Positions 2,023-13,288 of a stretch of 64,000 nt of DNA are shown here, piece by piece. This DNA is from an uncultured Acidobacteriota bacterium (GTDB taxonomy: Bacteria > Acidobacteriota > UBA6911). Location of the stretch: the NCBI GenBank assembly GCA_963827655.1, contig CAWHCF010000026.1:1-64000 (forward strand), given 5' to 3'. The notes under the pieces are model-generated. The model was not told where the DNA came from and searched no databases. It saw only the letters and a list, made by a program, of their open reading frames with translations. A program made the translations under genes and the position numbers. Each line of letters begins with the position of its first letter. Position 1 is the first letter of the stretch.

Positions 2023-2180
2023 TTATATTTCCACCCACACATACACTGTGTTGTACCGGGCGGCCGACTGTCGTCGGATCACGCGCACTGGATCTCGTCG
2101 CGATCCCATTTCTTCTTGCCGGCGAAGGTGCTCAGCCGCGTCTTCCACGGTAAGTTCGTGGCAGGACTGCGACAAGTCTT
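2023..2180 (+). mobile_element. IS91-family (HUH/Y2) transposase remnant
   Basis: The frame from 2023 reads LYFHPHIHCVVPGGRLSSDHAHWISSRSHFFLPAKVLSRVFHGKF, the IS91 HPH-x-H core. No start codon and no C-terminal part. Confidence 0.8.
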
Positions 2181-2418
2181 TCTTTCTTGCAGCACGTGTT
2201 GCCCAAGGGCATTTGTACATCGCTGCAGTCCGGGCGCTCCAGCGCCACCTGCGCCTCCCGCTGCTGCCCAACAATCGACAGCGAGGCGCGCGTGGGCTAG
2301 CCAGCCAGTCGCGGCCGTGGCTGCACCTGCGCGTCTTTCTGGCCAGCCCGTGGACGTCGCGGACGAACGGGCGCTGAGCCCTCGCCGCGCTCAAACAGCT
2401 TCCCTACGGGCCGCGAAA

Positions 2419-3104
2419 CTAGTCAAACTTGCCGGCGCGGACGACATTGGGACGAATATAGGGATTCGTCGCGTTGCCGCAATTTGGCGCGTGAACACGG
2501 ACCTCCCTTGTCTGGCCCGGAGCAAGGGCGACATCGGTACTACCCCATAGCGTGTCTTGCGCGCAACTGAGCGAGCGTGCCGCTCCCGACCATCGTTGAG
2601 CACCCGAATTTCGGACCTCATAGATCACGTCCACCGTTTGGCCTGGGCCGCTGTTCGCCGAGTGCCATCCAACGCGATAACGATAGTCGACGCCCGCGGC
2701 GCGACCCCACCCGGACCAGTTAGTCATACGATAGCCACCAGCAGCTGGGGATGGCGTTACCGGAGCGGTCTGAGTTGTACCGTCACGTAGAGCAAGGTTG
2801 CACCAGTGCTTAGGGTCTTCAAAACCCGTAACTCCATACAACGTACGGTGCGCTGCGCCGCAGACTAATGGTCGGACTCTTGCGAAATCAACGTCGCGGA
2901 TCGATTGGCCCCACAAGCAATTCCTTCCATCGTAGGACGCACATGCGGGGTTTCCATCATTCGTAATGGCGAAAACAAGCCGGCCGCCGTTGGGCGGTGG
3001 GAACGTAGCTTCTTGCCAGCGCTCGCTCGCAAGCGCTACGTCGCCTACGTAATAGGAGAGGATGTGATCAACACGGCAACAACTATCAGCTTCAAGGTTT
3101 TCAT
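2419..3104 (-). CDS. Secreted protein: 4-Cys domain (paralog of the TIR protein C-terminus) plus a beta-rich, possibly Ig-like domain; apparent frameshift in the signal peptide
   Basis: ATG 3104 with an AGGAG RBS gives MKTLKLIVVAVLIT. The next frame gives ILSYYVGDVALA-SERWQEATFPPPNGG...CASYDGRNCLW, which is continuous with ORF 2419..2916. Confidence 0.72.
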
Positions 3105-3205
3105 GGACTGACTCCTCTCTTAGTAGAACTCGTCAAATTCCAGTTAAAAGATCGAAAGCAATTCGAAGTGATACATCCCGACTGATTGCCGCCTTGCGCT
3201 TTAGC

Positions 3206-4498
3206 CTACTTTCGAATGCCACTCACTTTTCTGGCCAGATTGCACCAGTGCTTGGGGTCTTCGTAGCCGGTGACACTCCACCTGGCGCGATGCCCTTCAC
3301 CGCAGACTAGCGGTTCCAGTCGTGTGAAATCGATCTGGTCGTAGCTAAGTCCCCACAAGCAATTGGCACCGTCGTAGGAAGCACAGGCCGGATTGCCGTC
3401 CGGCATGATGGTGAAGACCATGGGCCCGCCGTTAGGCGGTGGAAAGTCGTAGGACGGCCAGCGCGCGGCGTGGGTGGCGGCAGCCTTCTCCGCGGCCAGT
3501 ATCTTGGCTTCGCGGTCAGTATTTTCCTTCGCTAGAGCGTCGGCTTCCGTCTTGTCAGCAGCCTCCTTCGCCGCCAATCTGTCTGCTTCTGCCCTGTCAG
3601 CAGCCTGCTTCGCACGTATCTTTGCTTCACCGTCGCGCTTCTCCTTAGTAGCTAGCCTAGCCGCTTCTATCTCGTCAGCAGCCTGCTTCTTGGAAAGCTG
3701 ATCGGCTTGTAATTCGGCAGGGGCCGTCTGATCGGACTGGGTCTTGGCCTTAGGCTCATTGCTAACCGGCCGGCCGTTTGCTGCCGTCGGTGCCTCTGCG
3801 CTAGTGGCAATCTCGGGCGCCGTGGAAGATCTTGAGTACCAAACGTATCCAGGAAACGAGAGAGCGATCACCGCCCCCAACGCCGTGACGATGACACGAA
3901 ATGAGATTATAGGTTGACCGATAACGGCCGGTCCGGTTGTCTGCGCGCCTGGCTCCATCACCGCGCGGCCAGTCCCCGATGCTTGCGTTGCATTGGCCCC
4001 CGCTTTGGCTTTCTCACGATCCAGCTCCAAGCGCCTCTCTTGCACGTGCGGGCGCAATGCCTTTATGAGCACCTGAACATCAGATTCCCAACGAGCGTGG
4101 GTCAGCTCGACCCCGTTGCGAAAAGCAAGATCTGCCAGATCTGGTGTTAGCTGTTCCGCTCGCGGCATGCTTGCCCCCTGGACCAGCACGGGGATGACTG
4201 GGATATCGCGCTTCAGTGCTGAGGCAGTTTCAAGGCGAACGAAATCCATCGGGTCATCGAGTCGGCGTCGGCCCGAGTTATCCTGGGCATTGATCCAACT
4301 CTTGCCAATGATCGCCAGGAGGACACCGCAAGAGGCTACGTGCTCGTCAATGATCCGCCGAAAATCGCGCCCTGGCTCGATGCCGCCCACATCCATAAAC
4401 ACCGCATCACTACCAAATTCGCTTGCGAGATCATTAAACAAGCGTCCAGCTTGCCCTTCAGCGTCTTCTCTGCGATAGCTGATGAAGATTGCACGCAT
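3206..4498 (-). CDS. TIR_2 domain - transmembrane helix - Ala/Lys/Glu-rich stalk - extracytoplasmic 4-Cys domain protein
   Basis: IFISYRRED, VFMDV..IEPG.DF and DFVRLE (catalytic Glu). TM segment VIVTALGAVIALSFPGYVWY. AAGGAG RBS. Confidence 0.9.
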   Translation of the reverse strand: MRAIFISYRREDAEGQAGRLFNDLASEFGSDAVFMDVGGIEPGRDFRRIIDEHVASCGVLLAIIGKSWINAQDNSGRRRLDDPMDFVRLETASALKRDIPVIPVLVQGASMPRAEQLTPDLADLAFRNGVELTHARWESDVQVLIKALRPHVQERRLELDREKAKAGANATQASGTGRAVMEPGAQTTGPAVIGQPIISFRVIVTALGAVIALSFPGYVWYSRSSTAPEIATSAEAPTAANGRPVSNEPKAKTQSDQTAPAELQADQLSKKQAADEIEAARLATKEKRDGEAKIRAKQAADRAEADRLAAKEAADKTEADALAKENTDREAKILAAEKAAATHAARWPSYDFPPPNGGPMVFTIMPDGNPACASYDGANCLWGLSYDQIDFTRLEPLVCGEGHRARWSVTGYEDPKHWCNLARKVSGIRK

Positions 4499-4537
4499 GC
4501 TTCTCTCCTTCTGCTTTCGTTTCTGGTGTTCGATCCA

Positions 4538-5329
4538 TCAACGACTCGGTGGGCGAACAATAGGCACTGAAGTAAACGAGCCCGATGGGTTAAAACGCAA
4601 CCCCAATGCCGTGAAAGCACCCTCACTTTGCAGCCGGATAATGCCCCGTCGATTTGAAGATGACGGAAACAGGTCTGTCACAAAGAAGGAAGCGTGTCCT
4701 AAAGCGAAAAGGCCTCCGCGAAACGAGGCGAGTTCGACGCCGCCGTCGTTATACAACGTGGCTGTAAAGAGAGATCCAGTCGAAGACTGATTTACCAAAG
4801 CCAGCCCTGTTTGGAAGCCGCCGGTGTTGTCATAAGGAAGCGCCATCGACAATGACTCTGCCGTATCAAGTGGAACAGTGCCTTCTGACAGCGCACCACC
4901 CGGTGAGTTGAAACGAAAGATTGCATAGCCGGTCACTGCGCCTCTCGCTTGAACGTCGGCCCAGCCAACCAACCTGCGTGGCACAGCCACGCCGGTCTCG
5001 AGGACAACGGATCCATTTGCAGCGATAGTCAGATCTTCGGACGATCGAAATACACTCAAACCAAACTGCGGATAGTCGAGCGGCAAAGTCAGGGGGCGGC
5101 CATCGTCGTCATAGAATTGAATCCGGGCGGTCACCGACACAGTCGACAAATTGATTAGCGTTATAGTGGTGACCCATCCGCCGCCGGAAGCAATGTGAGC
5201 CAGAGTTCCGACTCGTCGCACCCCTGCGGGCTCCTGAGCAAAACAGCTCACCATAGACAGGAAAAGAGCAAACATGGACAGGCCAGTTCGAACCAACCAA
5301 ACTCTGTAGATCGACATCGCTCGCCTCAT
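4538..5329 (-). CDS. Secreted hypothetical protein with two repeated beta-sandwich-like units (acidobacterial type)
   Basis: Signal peptide ending SCFA-Q. Paired motifs AHIASGGGWVTTITLIN and YDNTGGFQTGLALVN. Start is uncertain (5329 or 5317). Confidence 0.7.
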   Translation of the reverse strand: MRRAMSIYRVWLVRTGLSMFALFLSMVSCFAQEPAGVRRVGTLAHIASGGGWVTTITLINLSTVSVTARIQFYDDDGRPLTLPLDYPQFGLSVFRSSEDLTIAANGSVVLETGVAVPRRLVGWADVQARGAVTGYAIFRFNSPGGALSEGTVPLDTAESLSMALPYDNTGGFQTGLALVNQSSTGSLFTATLYNDGGVELASFRGGLFALGHASFFVTDLFPSSSNRRGIIRLQSEGAFTALGLRFNPSGSFTSVPIVRPPSR

Positions 5330-5918
5330 TTTCGATAACAACATGTATTCGCTCGGACCATTCCGGGTTTTCAGTCCCACGCTACTTGGCTGCAATCGGT
5401 GGGCCAAGACGCGAGTCAGAATCTCGCGCGGACCAAGAGTGCTTGATCCAAATCGAGATGAAGCTCCATTGGCAAACTTCTCGGAAAGGTAGATCGCTGC
5501 CTTGGGCGGGCTCAATTCTATCCGCTCAGATAGTCAGGCTATCTCGTCGGATAGTTGCGAAAAAACGTCGGGCGACCTGTCGTTCGCTGAAATCCAATCG
5601 GCGACAAGTGAAGGTAACCGCCCGACCTGAGCGGATCTTGACGTTCACTTGGACGAGTATGTCGGCTTATCGGACAAGTGGAGGGAAGCGAGGCGGTTTC
5701 TGTCGGACGCCCCGCCAGTTGTCCGGTTTGCCACGTAATAATGCAAGGGAGGCGGAGACCGGGCCTAAACGCTCGGCGATTGTTCGCGCTGAGGCGCGCG
5801 GGCGCACCGGAAGACCTCGTTACCCTGCCCACTTCTAAGATTAGTCGATACAAAGCGTCTGCCTTTTCAACCCAAGACGCAGCCCCGGAAGGCAGCTGAC
5901 GACCCTGTAAATAGCTCC

Positions 5919-5968: not shown

Positions 5969-6298
5969 ATGCCCAAACCGTCAGACTTGCTCCAAGGAAC
6001 GTTGGACCTGCTCATCCTCAAGACAATCGCCAGAGAACCGCTTCACGGCTGGGGAATCGCCAAGCGCATTCAGCTACTCTCCGGCGAAGTCCTCTCGGTT
6101 GGCCAGGGTTCGCTCTACCCGGCGTTGTATCGGCTCGAACAACAAGGTTGGATCAGCGCGGAATGGAAAGACTCCGATCTCGGCCGTTCTGCCAAGTTTT
6201 ATTCGCTGACGCGGGAAGGCAAAAAGCAACTAGAGCGTGAACTGAGAAGCTGGGAACGGCTTTCCTCTGCCGTTCAGCTTCTGATCGAGAGCGCCTAG
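5969..6298 (+). CDS. PadR family transcriptional regulator (acidobacterial type)
   Basis: DLLQGTLDLLIL, LHGWGIAKRI, QGSLYPALYRLE. Lies directly upstream of an ADOP permease. Confidence 0.95.
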   Translation: MPKPSDLLQGTLDLLILKTIAREPLHGWGIAKRIQLLSGEVLSVGQGSLYPALYRLEQQGWISAEWKDSDLGRSAKFYSLTREGKKQLERELRSWERLSSAVQLLIESA

Positions 6299-6307
6299 GA
6301 GGAAGCC

Positions 6308-8956
6308 ATGCGATTAGGCCGGGTTGCCGTCCAGCGTTTCCGCTCACTCTTCCGGCGGTCCCAGGCGGAAGCAGACATGCAGCGGGAGCTTGATCTTCAC
6401 ATCGAACAACTCACAAAAGAGCACATCGCCGCCGGAATGAGCGAGTCCGAAGCTCGTCTGGCGGCCCGGCGTGAATTCGGATCTTTGGAGGTCACAAAGG
6501 AGCAGTGCCGCGAGATGCGCCGCGTCAACCTGATCGAAGATTTGATCAGGGATCTGACATATGCCTTTCGCGTTCTAAGGAAGTCGCCGGGCTTCACCCT
6601 GACGGCAGTTTTTTCCCTGGCCCTGGGTATCGGAGCGAACACGGCGATTTTCAGCCTCGTGGATGCGGTGCTGCTGCGAATGCTGCCGGTCCGCGAGGCG
6701 CAGCAGCTGCTGGAGGTGAGCCGGACGGGCGGAAGGACGCTCAGCTATCCCATATTTGAAATCATCCGGGATCGCAATCAGGTGTTCTCGGGCGTGCTGC
6801 TCACATCTTCAGGCCGATTCGGAGGCAGTGCGCGGCTTGGCGATGTTGATTTTGGCGATGTTCACTTCTCCCCGGTTTCGGGAGACTATTTCGCGGTTCT
6901 GGGCGTTACACCTGTCATCGGGCGTGCTCTGACCGAGGAGGACCTTGCCGCTGCAAATACGACGGTGATCAGCTACGGATTGTGGCAGCGGGCCTTCGCA
7001 GGCGATCCCGCCGTGCTGGGCAAGGCGCTGCGAGTCGGTAGCCGAACGTACACGATTGTAGGCATCGCGCCCAGGGGTTTTACGGGTATCGCCACGGGGC
7101 AGCCGGTGGATCTTTGGGTTCCGGCGACGTTCTGGAGTGACCGGCAGTCTTTCCAGAACCCTGTGGCGATGATGTTCCGGGTGGTGGCGCGGCGCAAGCC
7201 AGGTGTCTCGGAGGAGCAGGCGCGCGCGAATATGGAGCTCCTGGCGCGGCAGTGGAGCGCCGAGTGGAAGTTCGAGCGGCCGATGCAGGTCGAGGTGGCG
7301 CCCGCAAGCGGCGGGCTGACCCAGTTGCGGCGGCGGTTTTCACGTCCGCTCCTGGTGTTGATGACCGTCGTTGCGCTGTTGCTGCTCATTGCGGCGGCTA
7401 ACCTCGCGAACTTGCTGCTCGCTCGGGCATCCGCCCGCCACCGGGAAATAGGCGTCCGACTTTCGCTGGGCGCGAGCCGGACGCGCCTGATCCGGCAGCT
7501 ACTCACGGAGAGCTTTGTCCTGGGTGGCGTGGGAGGAGTGGTTGGTCTGCTGCTTGCGCCCGTCGCGGCGACATTCCTCGTGCGGTTTCTGTCTTCCGCG
7601 CTGGGAACAATCGAGCTTTCGTTCGGCATTGACGGACGGGTGCTGGTGTTCACTCTGTCCACTTCGATCGCTGTGGTGTTGCTGTTCGGCCTTGCTCCGG
7701 CTCTTGCTGCCACCCGATCTGATCTTTCTCCGATGTTTAAGGGGGGAGCTTCCTGGTCCGGACGCGGCGAAGGATCGGCCAGACCCGGAGAGCTTCTTGT
7801 CGTGACGCAGGTAGCGATCTCGTGCGTGCTGCTGGTGGGCGCGGTACTGTTCGCGCGGAGTCTGCAAACACTCACGCATCTGGATGCCGGTTTCCAGCCG
7901 GATAACGTTCTTCTGCTCCAGGTTTCCACGTCGGAGGAAGGGCCAAAAGGGTTGGAACGCGTGCGGCTCTATGGGCGCGTGCTAGAGCGTGTGGCTAGTG
8001 TGCCGGGCGTCCGATCGACGGCCCTCTCCAGCGAGAGACTCTTTTCGGGCAACTCATGGACGGAAGCGGTGAACGCCCCGGGCTTCGCGCCCCGGCCAGG
8101 GGAGGATCGGGAGGCGGTTTTGCTCGTCATATCTCCGGGGTTCTTTCGGACAATGGGCACATCGATGTTGCGCGGCCGCGACTTTGACTCGCGCGACGAC
8201 GAGCGCGCACCCAAAGTCGCGATCGTGAACGAGGCGATGGCCCGCTATTATTTTGGCGGAACGGAAGCCCTGGGACGCACGTTTCGCCTGGAGCACGGCG
8301 CGTTCCCCCAACCGCTGACGGTCGTGGGTTTGGTGCGAGATGCCAAGTACAAGAGCCTGAGAGAGGCGGCGCCGCGCATGGTCTACCTGCCCTACCTGCA
8401 AGCGCCCGACGCGCTGGGCGGGGCGAACATCGCTGTGCGGACGGCGGCGAATCCCCAGAAGATGGCGGATCTCCTTTGGAAGGAGGCTCGGGGTGAGAGC
8501 CCGCACCTTCGCTTTCAAGGAGCGACCACGCAGGCGCGTCTCGTGGAAGGGACGATTGCGCAAGACCGCATGCTGGCTCAGCTCTCGAGTTTTTTCGGAC
8601 TCGCCGCTGCCGCCCTGGTGTGTTTGGGACTGTATGGGTTAACAGCCTACGAGGTGTCGCGGCGTACAGCCGAAATCGGTGTGAGGATTGCGCTCGGTGC
8701 GCAACGGAGGGATGTGCTGCGCCTGGTCCTGGGTCGTTCGATGGCGTTGGTAGGGAGCGGTGTAGTTCTGGGACTCGGTGGCGGCGTGGGACTTTCACGC
8801 CTCGTAGAGAGCCTGCTGTTCGGAGTGCGTGGCACGGATGCGGTGACGCTGCTTCTGGCTGCGGCGATGCTGCTGGGCGTTGGCGCGGCGGCAGCGTACT
8901 GGCCAGCGCGACGGGCCGCAAGCGTGGATCCGATCACTTCACTAAGATACGAATAG
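6308..8956 (+). CDS. ADOP (acidobacterial duplicated orphan permease), MacB/FtsX-like
   Basis: Permease prefix [24 protein letters not shown], two REIGVR.LGA repeats, and C-terminal PARRAASVDPITSLRYE. Confidence 0.95.
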   Translation: MRLGRVAVQRFRSLFRRSQAEADMQRELDLHIEQLTKEHIAAGMSESEARLAARREFGSLEVTKEQCREMRRVNLIEDLIRDLTYAFRVLRKSPGFTLTAVFSLALGIGANTAIFSLVDAVLLRMLPVREAQQLLEVSRTGGRTLSYPIFEIIRDRNQVFSGVLLTSSGRFGGSARLGDVDFGDVHFSPVSGDYFAVLGVTPVIGRALTEEDLAAANTTVISYGLWQRAFAGDPAVLGKALRVGSRTYTIVGIAPRGFTGIATGQPVDLWVPATFWSDRQSFQNPVAMMFRVVARRKPGVSEEQARANMELLARQWSAEWKFERPMQVEVAPASGGLTQLRRRFSRPLLVLMTVVALLLLIAAANLANLLLARASARHREIGVRLSLGASRTRLIRQLLTESFVLGGVGGVVGLLLAPVAATFLVRFLSSALGTIELSFGIDGRVLVFTLSTSIAVVLLFGLAPALAATRSDLSPMFKGGASWSGRGEGSARPGELLVVTQVAISCVLLVGAVLFARSLQTLTHLDAGFQPDNVLLLQVSTSEEGPKGLERVRLYGRVLERVASVPGVRSTALSSERLFSGNSWTEAVNAPGFAPRPGEDREAVLLVISPGFFRTMGTSMLRGRDFDSRDDERAPKVAIVNEAMARYYFGGTEALGRTFRLEHGAFPQPLTVVGLVRDAKYKSLREAAPRMVYLPYLQAPDALGGANIAVRTAANPQKMADLLWKEARGESPHLRFQGATTQARLVEGTIAQDRMLAQLSSFFGLAAAALVCLGLYGLTAYEVSRRTAEIGVRIALGAQRRDVLRLVLGRSMALVGSGVVLGLGGGVGLSRLVESLLFGVRGTDAVTLLLAAAMLLGVGAAAAYWPARRAASVDPITSLRYE

Positions 8957-9770: not shown

Positions 9771-12230
9771 CTACTCCCACCTCAGGGCAATGAGCGGATC
9801 GACACGGGTCGCGCGGCGGGCTGGAAGATACGTGGCCGCGAGCGCAGCACTCAGAAGAACGACTGCCGCGAAGATGAAGGCCGCCGGGTCGGTTCGCGTC
9901 ACCCCAAAGAGCAGGCTTTCCATGAACCGGGTGAGCGCGGTGGCTCCGACGAGCCCGGTGATGATACCCATGCCGGCAAGACCCATTCCTTCGCTCACAA
10001 CCATTCGAATGACGTCGCGGCGATCTGCGCCAAGCGCCATGCGCACGCCGATTTCACGGGTGCGTCGGGTGACGGAGTAGGACATCACGCCATAGATACC
10101 GATAAGAGCGAGAATCATCGCGAGAGCCGCAAATGAGCCCAGCACCAGGGTGGTGAAGCTCGGACGCGCGATGGATTCCGCAATGAATTCCTCCATCGTT
10201 CGGTTGCGATAGATCGCCTGCGCGGGATCCATCGCGAGCACTTCCTTCTTGATAGATGTTGCCAGTGCCGCGGGATGTACCGTGCTATGCACAGCCAAGG
10301 TCATTCCGCCGAGCTGGAACTGCCGATACGGCAAGATCATCTCCGGACGCGCCCCTTCAATGAAGCCGCGATGCCGAACCGAGCCGACTATCCCGATGAT
10401 CTCGCGTGGGCGCCCGTAGAGAAGCACACGCCGGCCGATCGGGTTTTCCCCGGGGAACAGCTGTCCCGCCATCGTATGGTTGATGATCACGACCGGCGTG
10501 CTGTTCGGATTATCGAATTCCGTAAAGTCGCGCCCGTCGAGCAGCGGAATGCCCAAAGTTCGAAAATAGCCTGTGCTGGCGATGCGCAGATCCGCCTGCG
10601 GTTCTTCGCCTGGCTTTGGCTTGGGCCTGCCCTCAATCACGACCGGCATGTCGTAATCGATACCCACGGGATTCAGGGGCAGCGCGGACACGGCGCCCGC
10701 GGCCTGAACGCCCGGCAGATTTCGCACGCGATCGAGAAGCTCCGCGACAAACGCAGAAGGCTTCGACAGCGGAACAGGTGGCGAACCCGGGGGCGGCGCC
10801 GGACGGAACTGAGTCGGGTCGATAGGATATCTCGATGCTGGAAGCCCGAGCTGCATGGTCAGAACTTTCTCGGGCCGAAAGCCGTGATCCATGTCCTGAA
10901 GATTCAGGAGCGTTCGGATCATCAGGCCGGCCCCGACGAGAAGCATCAGCGAGAGGGCAACTTCGGCGACGACGAGCATGGAGCGTCCGTAACTTCGGCG
11001 TGCCGACCCGGAGGCATTGAGTGAGCTTTCTTTGATCGCGGCGCTCAGATTCCCGCGCGAAGCTTCGAGTGCCGGCGCCAGGCCGAAGAGAATTCCCGTC
11101 AAGACGGAAAGAGCGGTCACGAAAAGAAGGACACTCGAGTCCACCGTTACCTGATCGATGCCAGGCAGGTCCGGAGGACTGAAGTGGACGAAAAGGTCGA
11201 GTGCCCACCAGGCGAAGAACGTTCCGGCGAATCCACCGGCGATCCAAAGCAACAGACTCTCCGTGAGGAGTTGCCGCAAGACGCGCCAGCGATCGGCGCC
11301 GAGGGACGTTCGCACCGCGATCTCATGCCTCCGAGCTACGGCTCGCGCCAACAGAAGGTTGGCGACATTCGCGCAGGCGATGAGCAAAACGAAGCCGGAC
11401 GCGCCCAGGAGCACGGACAGGCCAAGCCGGACATGCTGCACCATCTGGTCATGCGCGCCGAAGACCACGACCTCCGGGTTGCTTGTCGCATCCTGCCTCG
11501 CGATTGCCTTAGCGATCGATCCCAGATTCGCCGCGGCGGATTCGATCGTCGAGTATCCTTTTAGCCTGCCGATGACCCTCAGCGAGTGAAAACGCCGCCC
11601 GATGAGGTCTCCCGGATTAAAGATGAGAGACGAATATATATCGATTGCGCTGCGCCTGTCGGGGAACGCGAACGACGGCGGCATCACCCCGAGAACCAAG
11701 TAGCTGGCGTCATTGAGCGTGATCGACCTGCCAATCAAGGAGCGGTCGCCGCCGAACCGGCTCTGCCAGAAGCTGTGACTGAGGACGACGACGCGGTCGC
11801 GTCTCTGATTTTCCTCTTCGGTGAACGTGCGGCCGATTGCCGCCTCTACGCCCAGCGTGCGGAAGAAACTGCTCGTTACGGTGAGCGCCTGGATCTGCTC
11901 GGGATATTCAAAGCCGGTCAGTGTGAAGACGCCATAGCGAAAGGCTGCCATATCCTCGAATTCGGTATTCTCTTTGCTCCAATCCGAGTAGTTCAGGGGC
12001 GCAACCGGGTCTTTGTCCTTACCAATCGTCGTGTTTCGCTCCCAGACCACCACGAGTCGATCCGGATTCCTATAAGGCAGCGGCTTCAGCATGATTGTAT
12101 TCACCACGCTGAATATCGCACTGTTGGCACCGATGCCCAGCGCTAACGTCAGCAACGCCACGGCCGTGAATGCCGGATTTCTTATGAGAGTGCGGACGCC
12201 GTATCGAATGTCCTGGAGCAGGGTTTCCAC
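9771..12230 (-). CDS. ADOP duplicated orphan permease
   Basis: GTG start at 12230 ([12 protein letters not shown]) after [19 protein letters not shown]-terminal [17 protein letters not shown]. Confidence 0.93.
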
Positions 12231-12232
12231 TG

Positions 12233-13288
12233 TTAACCTCCACGGCTCTCGGACGCTTGTGGCGGCAGCTGGCGCAGCGTCCGTGCGGTCCGTTCGCCCA
12301 ACAGCGTCAGCCACGTGGCCTGAAGCTCCAGGCCCGTCCGAAACATCTTGAGGAACGACGGGGGCAACATTGAGAAATCAATTGTCTCCCGAGCGCCCCA
12401 GTCCGGCCGCCGGCCATCGACATCGGTGAACCCGTAGTCGCGACTCAGCTCCCAGGAACTCCACAGTTGCCCCGTGCGGTCGAGCATTTGAGGATCCAAC
12501 GCGAGTGCCGCTACCGCACGGCCCACGTACAACGGTGATTCCGACTCCAGGAAGTTGCTGTCGTCCTTGCCGGCGTCTCGCCAATTGGCTTCCGTCACGC
12601 CCTTGGCATCAAGCATCGCCTCCGACCTCAGATACCCTGGCGTGATCGCGACCGCCGTCACTCTGTGGGCGTGGAGTTCCGCCGCCATATGCAGCGCCAG
12701 CCCCTTCGTGGCTAACTTGACAGACCACGCCAGCGGATTGCCGCCACCTCCAAGGATGTCATTCTCGGTGACCTCGACGATAAGCCCTCGCCGCCTCTGG
12801 ATCATGTGCGGCGCCACGTGCTTGGCCGTCACGATGTGCGACACGAGCGCCTGTCTGAATACCTGGTCGGCGTGCGCGACGTCGACCTGCCAGAAAGATC
12901 CCCACTGCCCCATCAGGGGTTCTTCGCCGGCGATGCTGTTCACGAGTACGTCCAGCCGGCCGTGCCGCTTCACAATACGCGTGACCAGCGCCTCGACCTC
13001 AGCCTCGACGGTGTGATCGACGCGCACCGCCATCGCGTGTCCGCCTGCGGCGGTGATCAGGGCGGCCGTTTCGTCGATGGTTTCGGGCCGCCCGTACGGC
13101 GACGGACGGCCCGTCACACTCCGCCCGGTGCAATACACGGTGGCGCCAGCTTCGCCGAGCGCCCGCGCAATCCCACGACCGGCACCCCTGGTGGCACCAG
13201 CCACGAGGGCGACCTGTCCACGGAGGTGACCCGGGCGCGGCCGAGTCGCGGAATGCGAGGGCCTACGAGCACGTGAACGCGTCGGCAT
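12233..13288 (-). CDS. SDR family oxidoreductase
   Basis: [15 protein letters not shown] Rossmann motif, GRLDVLVN, and [10 protein letters not shown]. Confidence 0.88.

Follow-up and report, generated by a model that had tools for sequence, protein, structure and literature searches.

SARM1 is a soluble ARM-SAM-TIR octamer gated by nicotinamide mononucleotide and nicotinamide adenine dinucleotide (NMN/NAD), and its TIR domain is the closest solved counterpart of that of gene 2, a 430-amino acid protein encoded by the window examined here, namely the whole stretch of 64,000 nucleotides (positions 1 to 64,000 of contig CAWHCF010000026.1, assembly GCA_963827655.1) from an uncultured Acidobacteriota bacterium. 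The two proteins share the FISYRR motif at the start of the TIR domain, the BB-loop Gly and the position of the catalytic Glu; unlike SARM1, gene 2 has its TIR domain at the N-terminus, followed by a transmembrane (TM) helix and a predicted extracytoplasmic domain. In a 2026 preprint, the SARM1 TIR domain is nested inside a bacterial lineage.

As for the Toll-like and IL-1 receptors, the likeness regards the layout, a single-pass protein with a ligand-binding ectodomain outside and the TIR domain inside, and activation through clustering of the ectodomains would be the natural analogy. The order is inverted in gene 2, with the TIR domain N-terminal and the ectodomain C-terminal; in addition, its TIR domain is of the enzymatic SARM1 type and not of the scaffold type, no adaptor genes are evident, and no leucine-rich repeat or immunoglobulin (Ig) family occurs in gene 2 or in the Pfam tally of the 80 family members described below.

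The bacterial defense proteins Thoeris ThsB, TIR-STING, SPARTA and TIR-SAVED have in common with gene 2 a bacterial TIR domain and the conserved Glu, together with an activity that depends on oligomerization in their published accounts, and that would do so in gene 2. Gene 2 differs from them in lacking a partner or a fusion of the ThsA, Argonaute, STING or SAVED kind, and in its input domain, which is predicted to be extracytoplasmic. Finally, the PASTA Ser/Thr kinases of the PknB type follow the same one-component logic, with a cytoplasmic enzyme, one TM segment and wall-binding repeats outside; PASTA domains occupy the same place in 19 of the 80 members of the TIR family. The output is a TIR domain instead of a kinase, and gene 2 itself carries, in place of PASTA, a domain that resembles the poxvirus protein H2.

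Domain Organization of Gene 2

In the initial annotation, gene 2 was described as a TIR domain with its catalytic Glu, one TM helix, a stalk and a C-terminal domain with four Cys, and this anatomy is confirmed by a TIR_2 match, by Glu90, by a single hydrophobic peak and by four invariant Cys. The ATG is preceded by its own Shine-Dalgarno sequence, GAAGGAG, and the features are the following:

3206-4498, minus strand: gene 2 (P0001, 430 aa), TIR domain, TM segment, Ala/Glu/Lys-rich stalk and C-terminal H2-like four-Cys domain
4055-4489, minus strand: TIR domain, residues 4-148, SARM1-like (Pfam TIR_2; nearest solved structure, SARM1 TIR)
4229-4231, minus strand: codon of Glu90 (in DFVRLE), the putative catalytic glutamate, aligned with SARM1 E642
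3839-3928, minus strand: single TM segment, residues ~191-220, with the sole Kyte-Doolittle windows of at least 1.6 in the protein
3464-3721, minus strand: stalk rich in Ala/Glu/Lys/Asp/Arg, residues 260-345, defined by composition, whose length differs among relatives
3227-3463, minus strand: H2-like four-Cys domain, residues 346-424, with Cys at 372, 380, 399 and 419

Regarding the TIR domain, Pfam TIR_2 (PF13676) matches residues 4-133 with an E value of 1.7e-10 and 41.9 bits against a cutoff of 28, and the TIR domain of SARM1, its nearest solved structure by sequence, aligns end to end with residues 4-148 (E 8.2e-5). Counting along the HMMER alignment, in which position 564 corresponds to query residue 4, Glu90 falls on SARM1 E642, the catalytic residue of that protein, and Gly43 of the BB-loop falls on G601. 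The TIR domain is predicted to be cytoplasmic because the protein has no signal peptide, the domain is N-terminal to the sole TM segment, and the orthologues of gene 2 have Arg/Lys clusters directly before this segment.

The stalk contains 28 Ala, 11 Glu and 11 Lys in 86 residues (260-345), a composition from which it is predicted to be helical, and the orthologues range from 291 to 467 aa. One public soil contig is without 78 nt at 3595-3674, inside the stalk. In the C-terminal domain, Cys372, Cys380, Cys399 and Cys419 are invariant in 10/10 orthologues; because of these four Cys, and because the same domain occurs elsewhere behind signal peptides or beside peptidases, CBM5/12 modules and lectins, it would be periplasmic and oxidized in gene 2.

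The genome of origin (G000) encodes four more TIR paralogues, 43-56% identical to the TIR domain of gene 2. They are located on contigs C32 (58141-58593 and 69229-69678), C33 (1813-2244) and C41 (223694-224134); in our own reading, one has a TM segment and a C-terminal region of unassigned kind, and two have soluble C-terminal regions.

A Family of TIR Proteins with Interchangeable Ectodomains

In sequence terms, gene 2 is a variant of a very large, unnamed family of soil bacteria, characterized by a SARM1-like TIR domain, a single TM segment and an interchangeable ectodomain; it has the conserved TIR cassette, one TM segment (191-220) and the Cys-rich C-terminal region that define such proteins. 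The family was sampled by a pattern scan with one genome per species (392 relatives), and the best 80 loci were kept. Their TIR domains are 70-86% identical to that of gene 2, and the hosts are Acidobacteriota, Betaproteobacteria, Verrucomicrobiota, Rokubacteria, Gemmatimonadota and metagenome-assembled genomes (MAGs) labeled as deltaproteobacteria. Forty-three TIR columns, including that of Glu90, are invariant in 80/80 members, and a TM-like segment occurs at residues 165-241 in 68 of the 80 open reading frames (ORFs), followed by 100-600 more residues.

The variable part is at the C-terminal side. The Pfam tally, which excludes a second, weaker TIR ORF of locus L012, gives TIR_2 in all 80 members, PASTA in 19, CzcE in 13 and BTRD1 in 2, with single cases of PBP_like_2, SBP_bac_1, Ricin-type lectin, Tachylectin, VHL and others; the four-Cys domain is the ectodomain of 11 members. 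The order of the domains, checked in examples, is TIR, TM, two PASTA and a solute-binding domain, or TIR, TM and CzcE. Since the ectodomains found elsewhere in the family are classic periplasmic binding modules, an envelope-sensing role would fit gene 2 as well. The module for envelope sensing that had been proposed for this locus is thus upheld as regards the receptor architecture, which recurs, and the nature of the other ectodomains, but not as regards a conserved partner. The fusion of TIR, TM and four-Cys domain itself is found in many genomes, so that the objection of its being peculiar to a single one falls.

As for the dimension of the family, a large protein collection contains 5053 clusters at E <= 1e-20 among the 8000 candidates scored, and the names that they bear are only "TIR domain", "hypothetical protein" or evident misannotations. 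Clustering of the ORFs over the 80 loci found neighbors conserved only by synteny among close kin, and none family-wide. A literature search whose coverage leaves out subscription journals and supplements found no description of TIR-TM-PASTA or TIR-TM-CzcE proteins. Older surveys of bacterial TIR architectures, such as that by Spear et al. (2009), may include TM-containing forms.

At one MAG locus (L010:6001-7463), the TIR ORF ends at 199 aa and an H2-like domain is located ~600 nt further on, so that the gene may be split or frameshifted there; genes of this family are thus found broken in other assemblies as well.

Relation of the Four-Cysteine Domain to Poxvirus H2

The four-Cys domain is placed, on the basis of predicted models and profile matches, in a superfamily that spans bacteria, giant viruses and poxviruses; its relation to the poxvirus protein H2 is derived from structural alignment (VIA-align), from Pfam and from BFVD. 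An AlphaFold2 model of the domain, built from 83 sequences, had a pLDDT of 92 and a pTM of 0.82, with three strands and two helices assigned by DSSP; the alignment of the domain (A4) consists of 82 of the 150 listed database matches, those of at most 330 aa. Comparison with 48,161 PDB representatives by VIA-align placed at the top the ectodomain of vaccinia H2 (8ini_B), with Z 8.2 and a root-mean-square deviation of 3.0 Å over 79 of 91 residues, followed by the H2-containing entries 9l7w_A (Z 7.5) and 9uzo_D (Z 6.8); the following chain had only Z 3.5. The model of an intact orthologue of gene 3, the neighbor of gene 2 that encodes a secreted protein with a second copy of the domain, gave H2 again for residues 25-105 (Z 7.8). 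Foldseek against the PDB retrieved nothing at E <= 1e-3 with either model; for the model of the domain, the 7 top rows were all H2 entries, at E >= 0.25.

Regarding the profile evidence, the Pfam family of H2, Pox_LP_H2 (PF03356), matches 25 of 83 relatives of the domain at E <= 0.1, with a best value of 3.9e-11, and its cutoff of 27.6 bits is passed by 4 of the 10 relatives examined singly (43.6, 34.5, 28.4 and 28.2 bits). The copies of the window itself fail, with no match at E <= 1 (P0001 and P0002) or at E <= 0.1 (P0004). In a weak alignment of the family profile with 8ini_A (E 0.84), Cys399 and Cys419 fall on the two H2 Cys with a spacing of 20 residues. The motif that is best conserved in the domain, G-x-x-G-Y ... 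H-W-C, falls on G-Y-S-G-Y ... H-W-C of H2. According to the preprint on the H2 structure, H2 is a type II membrane protein, its four Cys pair as C102-C148 and C162-C182, and its LGYSG region is needed for infectivity and for binding to A28.

Among the predicted viral structures of BFVD, the best matches were the giant-virus proteins A0A6G6XPS3, A0A6M6DEW5 and A0A1V0SAM2 (Catovirus), with E values from 5.6e-6 to 1.5e-4, TM-scores of 0.66-0.73 and 26-35% identity; the next was A0A6N1NPK8 (Tupanvirus), with E values up to 2.9e-3 and identity down to 21%, and the poxvirus H2 orthologues came after it. Giant-virus proteins may link the bacterial and the poxvirus branches. A protein atlas search with the 91-residue domain gave no usable match.

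Taken side by side with H2 (PF03356; PDB 8INI, 9L7W and 9UZO), the domain of the window shares the fold as modeled, the four Cys and, as described in the H2 preprint, the position of the ectodomain C-terminal to a membrane anchor; going by the weak profile alignment, the spacing of 20 residues between the C-terminal pair and the G-x-x-G-Y ... H-W-C motif would be common to both. The differences regard the spacing of the first Cys pair, which is of 8 residues in the window and of 46 in H2, the fusion of the bacterial domain to TIR, peptidases, lectins and other modules, and the lack of any indication that the bacterial domain has an A28-like partner or takes part in membrane fusion.

A search with the 91 residues of the domain against 1.84 billion representatives gave 438 clusters at E <= 1e-3, of which 158 also passed E <= 1e-10. 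Among the 150 matches listed, the domain is at the C terminus of TIR-TM proteins in 14 (one of these with a different TIR domain); the other settings are behind signal peptides, alone or with a C-terminal extension, after trypsin-like peptidases, with CBM5/12, lectin-type or lipoprotein modules, and in tandem arrays of long proteins. This company of peptidases and of chitin-binding, lectin and lipoprotein modules suggests a surface or polymer ligand; by analogy with the function of H2 itself, the conserved G-x-x-G-Y loop may serve to bind a protein. The literature search mentioned above, with the same coverage, found no description of bacterial H2 homologues.

Genes 2 and 3 as Neighbors

Gene 2 is flanked by two genes of the same orientation, and the minus strand holds three ORFs, at 4538-5329, 3206-4498 and 2419-~3104. 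Their spacing of 39 and 101 bp, as originally reported, is borne out, the second distance being measured to the ATG at 3104. The features outside gene 2 are the following:

4538-5329, minus strand: gene 1 (P0003, 263 aa), protein that has a signal peptide and matches no Pfam family, member of a large family with expansions throughout the phylum
3045-3104, minus strand: start of gene 3 and piece of its signal peptide, 19 codons and then a stop, out of frame with the body
3054-3058, minus strand: frameshift site of gene 3, one base short with respect to its kin, in a tract of Ser codons
2419-3042, minus strand: body of gene 3 (P0002), in the -1 frame relative to its own ATG, with the stop at 2419-2421
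2023-2187, plus strand: remnant of a transposase of the IS91 type, which covers only positions 13-66 of the 183 in the Pfam profile Y2_Tnp (E 5.7e-14)

A scan of 2300-5700 gave no promoter-like site, where 1.3 were expected, and 3 terminator-like sites, where 3.9 were expected, and does not inform on the operon structure. The copy of the domain at the start of gene 3 was correctly recognized as ungapped (52/79 identical, E 1e-37); what does not stand is gene 3 as one ORF, since it is frameshifted in this assembly. The ATG at 3104, which follows the Shine-Dalgarno sequence AGAGGAG, gives the 19 signal-peptide codons and then a stop at 3045-3047. The -1 frame of the body runs from stop to stop at 2419-3132, and its first canonical start is a TTG at 2916, inside the domain; the order in the body is H2-like domain (2785-3021), Pro/Thr-rich linker and beta-sandwich (2422-2745).

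With respect to metagenome contigs L085 and L115, which are 96-97% identical over 1.5-1.8 kb, one base is missing between 3057 and 3058. The tract is a short run of Ser codons whose length varies among relatives, and P0155 (226 aa), the closest library protein, is intact, in frame and with a shorter Ser tract. Four public runs were compared in this region, where X1 fails to span the site and X2 lacks coverage; the two public contigs spanning it keep the frame, with a difference of +1 base in one and of -5 in the other, and the form of the window occurs in neither. No public sequencing run matched more than 0.61 of the words searched for. Elsewhere the assembly of the window looks sound, with long ORFs over 87% of it and with intact permease genes of 847 and 882 aa. 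The shift is thus to be read either as an inactivation of very recent date or as an error in the consensus at a site polymorphic in length. Programmed -1 frameshifting was considered and rejected, there being no slippery heptamer and the relatives being simply in frame.

Proteins of the gene 3 type form 78 clusters of 225-245 aa, with a signal peptide, the H2-like domain, the Pro/Thr linker and a beta-sandwich that carries two more conserved Cys. For the sandwich (residues 135-226 of the orthologue), only a generic resemblance to the Ig/Fn3-like domains of glycoside hydrolases was found (Z 6.0-6.7 with many ties; Foldseek E 4.6e-3), and PADLOC and NCBIfam have no family for gene 3 or for gene 1. 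In another public contig, the Pro/Thr linker has a 21-nt insertion at 2755, which corresponds to the repeated TTQTAPV of P0156. A Cys repeat, G-[FY]-V-W-R-E-A ... D-x-V-C-V, takes the place of the H2-like domain before a sandwich of this type in P0171 and P0191, and it adjoins the H2-like domain in P0024 and in the TIR-TM protein P0026, which indicates that secreted modules are shuffled.

As to whether genes 2 and 3 are a pair, loci of other species with the TIR-four-Cys fusion have a single copy of the domain in 11/11 cases, and none of the 11 (0/11) has a second one within 6 kb. Conversely, in a survey of 47 metagenome loci of the secreted type, neither a TIR domain nor a second copy was found in any of the 35 non-kin loci with more than 400 bp upstream, 21 of which have more than 1.5 kb. 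A TIR domain is beside the gene 3 type only in L085 and L115, the near-identical kin of the window, where gene 3 is intact; the contexts of the gene 3 type vary otherwise, as in L087, with a P4-type integrase, and in L090, with an IS66-type transposase (both read by eye). The three genes had been regarded as one locus, a reading that these data do not sustain: gene 1 occurs in 0/80 TIR loci, and the adjacency of gene 3 with a TIR gene is restricted to the near-identical kin.

A tree of the domain, made with 155 rows out of 216 domain proteins (those with a single, near-full domain), groups the copy of gene 2 with the TIR-linked copies and puts that of gene 3 inside the nearly monophyletic secreted type. 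Indeed, the domain of gene 2 shares 80% identity with its counterpart in a TIR protein of Piscinibacter, and 66% with that of its own neighbor. A recent tandem or local duplication of the domain was rejected, the two copies being in different subfamilies. Gene 3 is, as judged from these comparisons, a separately mobile secreted protein and no general partner of the receptor.

Genes 2 and 3 were probably acquired together beside the IS91 remnant, because the domain is nearly absent from the relatives (1/60, with a weak match), the TIR paralogues of the genome are no closer to gene 2 than the 43-56% given above, and the IS91 fragment adjoins gene 3 on its 3' side. In 400 other genomes sampled from the phylum, the C-terminal part of gene 3 was not found (0/400). 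Such a co-acquisition is a sufficient explanation of the adjacency.

Gene 1 and the Surroundings of the Locus

Gene 1 has relatives in 35/41 related genomes, G000 and the unpublished G046 being among those counted. A single genome has as many as 43 matches, and these are often modules repeated within large proteins. It is absent from 80/80 TIR loci and from 47/47 loci of the gene 3 type. As a component of the system it was therefore rejected: it belongs to an expanded family and accompanies none of these related TIR genes or genes of the gene 3 type.

The flanks of the locus contain VOC and PhyH enzymes, a PadR and FtsX/MacB-type permease pair, oxidoreductases and sugar enzymes. On the 3' side, the IS91 remnant is ~230 bp from the stop of gene 3, and its frame opens at 1993 and overlaps the end of the PhyH gene (1236-2000). 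The remnant may correspond to one border of an acquired block. At 5969-8956, plus strand, a PadR regulator directly precedes the 882-aa MacB_PCD/FtsX permease, and a second permease of this kind, of 847 aa, is on the opposite strand at 9771-12314 (minus). PadR-permease pairs are typical of Acidobacteriota. Farther away, an ORF at 21577-22482, minus strand, matches the Phage_T4_gp19 tail-tube protein (E 5.6e-11) and could derive from a prophage or a contractile injection system.

Proposed Mechanism and Alternative Explanations

The reading of gene 2 as an envelope sensor complete in one gene, whose output would be a TIR NADase, with gene 3 as no general partner and gene 1 unrelated, has about an even chance of being correct. 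The architecture, the family, the relationship of fold, the frameshift and the lack of conserved neighbors are shown; the topology, the NADase activity, the activation by clustering and the physiological outcome are all predicted. The N-terminal, SARM1-like TIR domain would be in the cytoplasm, and the TM segment and the variable stalk would carry the disulfide-bonded domain of H2 fold in the periplasm. A ligand, or a change in the envelope, would cluster the ectodomains, and this would assemble the TIR domains; these in turn would cleave NAD+, with depletion or production of an ADPR-type signal, and lead to growth arrest or death of the affected cell. The steps from clustering to arrest are modeled on SARM1 and the bacterial defense TIR proteins, whose activity needs oligomerization according to the papers on them.

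Several observations weigh against this reading. The TM segment is unclear on a crude hydrophobicity scale in 12/80 family ORFs, mostly short ORFs or cases below the threshold. A defense-island context was rejected, the locus being surrounded by ordinary metabolic and transport genes, and a scan of viral_contigs with two TIR peptide patterns found one distant relative only, which does not indicate a link with phages. Membership in Thoeris is not indicated either: the NCBIfam ThcB4 model scores 38.6 bits against a cutoff of 220 and covers residues 2-62 of gene 2 only, and the PADLOC match to ThsB is partial and below the threshold (E 4.4e-6, residues 2-61 only). Furthermore, the sole two copies of the H2-like domain in the 8.18 Mb genome adjoin each other, co-oriented and 101 bp apart, whereas chance adjacency would be of the order of 2 in 7000 genes (a rough estimate), and both genes, gene 3 being intact, are retained side by side in the kin contigs L085 and L115. 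A linkage of some kind, whether functional or due to co-transfer, is thereby favored, to which the self-contained reading gives secondary weight. Finally, poxvirus H2 works by heterotypic protein binding, as described in the H2 preprint, which would suit a partner.

These last points favor the model of the initial annotation, in which the secreted H2-like protein binds the ectodomain of the receptor or its ligand and controls the TIR domain as a co-receptor or decoy; in the same direction, the G-x-x-G-Y ... H-W-C motif of the domain aligns, in the weak profile alignment, with the region that is required for A28 binding according to the vaccinia H2 preprint. Comparative support for this role is lacking, given the single copies in the other TIR-four-Cys loci (0/11) and the solitary state of the other secreted-type loci (0/35), and the placement of the two copies in different subfamilies and the frameshift of gene 3 in the window also speak against it. 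A complex prediction for the ectodomain of gene 2 and the H2-like domain of gene 3, with a score of 0.12 and a mark of 0.32, was counted neither for nor against binding, and the model is considered rather unlikely. A somewhat lower probability is given to a Thoeris-like signal synthase, with the TIR domain making a cyclic ADPR-type messenger for an effector encoded elsewhere, without depletion of NAD+. The weak resemblance of the first 60 residues of gene 2 to ThsB/ThcB4-type TIR domains agrees with it, and many bacterial TIR proteins are signal synthases (Sci Adv 2023, PMC10022894); against it are the ThcB4 score, far below the cutoff, and the closest solved relative, which is the NAD+-consuming SARM1 TIR domain. 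Moreover, no adjacent ThsA-type effector (SIR2, Macro or TM with SLOG) is present, the neighbors in the window being gene 1, gene 3, PadR and permease, and no ThsA-like or other conserved neighbor occurs across the 80 loci.

The lowest probability of all goes to a protein without a ligand-gated switch, that is, an envelope-anchored binding or adhesion protein whose TIR domain is an oligomerization scaffold or serves for housekeeping NAD processing. Such a reading would account for the wide shuffling of the H2-like domain as an extracellular module with peptidases, CBM5/12 and lectins and for the non-defense surroundings of gene 2, and the TIR domains of animal Toll-like receptors (TLRs) are scaffolds according to the literature; it is opposed by the SARM1-like, not TLR-like, character of the TIR domain and by the invariance, which an enzyme would be expected to show, of the putative catalytic Glu and 42 other TIR positions in the 80 members, which come from several phyla. 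The interchangeable ectodomains of sensor type (PASTA, CzcE and solute-binding proteins) likewise argue for a coupling of input and output, as in the self-contained sensor.

Implications for Soil Bacteria and for the H2 Superfamily

Two new points stand out, namely how large and modular the TIR-TM-ectodomain family is and the resemblance of the four-Cys domain to H2. In a broader view, which is tentative and is put forward as a possibility with the odds against it, soil bacteria would have a large and so far undescribed class of one-component sensors similar to Toll receptors, with a SARM1-type TIR NADase, one TM segment and interchangeable envelope-sensing ectodomains, which would cause NAD+-dependent arrest or death upon an attack on the envelope or a periplasmic cue; the ectodomain here would come from a previously unrecognized superfamily of bacteria, giant viruses and poxviruses (H2), and the secreted H2-like neighbor may tune the receptor.

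To our knowledge, the known bacterial TIR systems sense intracellular cues. If the broader view is true, the combination of SARM1-like TIR domains with a family of periplasmic sensors would be the closest bacterial analogue of the logic of TLR receptors, and the TIR-TM family, which is directly testable in simple expression systems, would be a candidate relative of the bacterial lineage behind the TIR domain of SARM1. As for H2, a component of poxvirus fusion would have been derived from, or exchanged with, a bacterial extracellular binding module; in itself, the family of bacterial and giant-virus H2-like proteins offers a way to approach the evolution of one of the eleven entry-fusion proteins of poxviruses, and the bacterial domain a tractable, non-viral model for the H2 fold.

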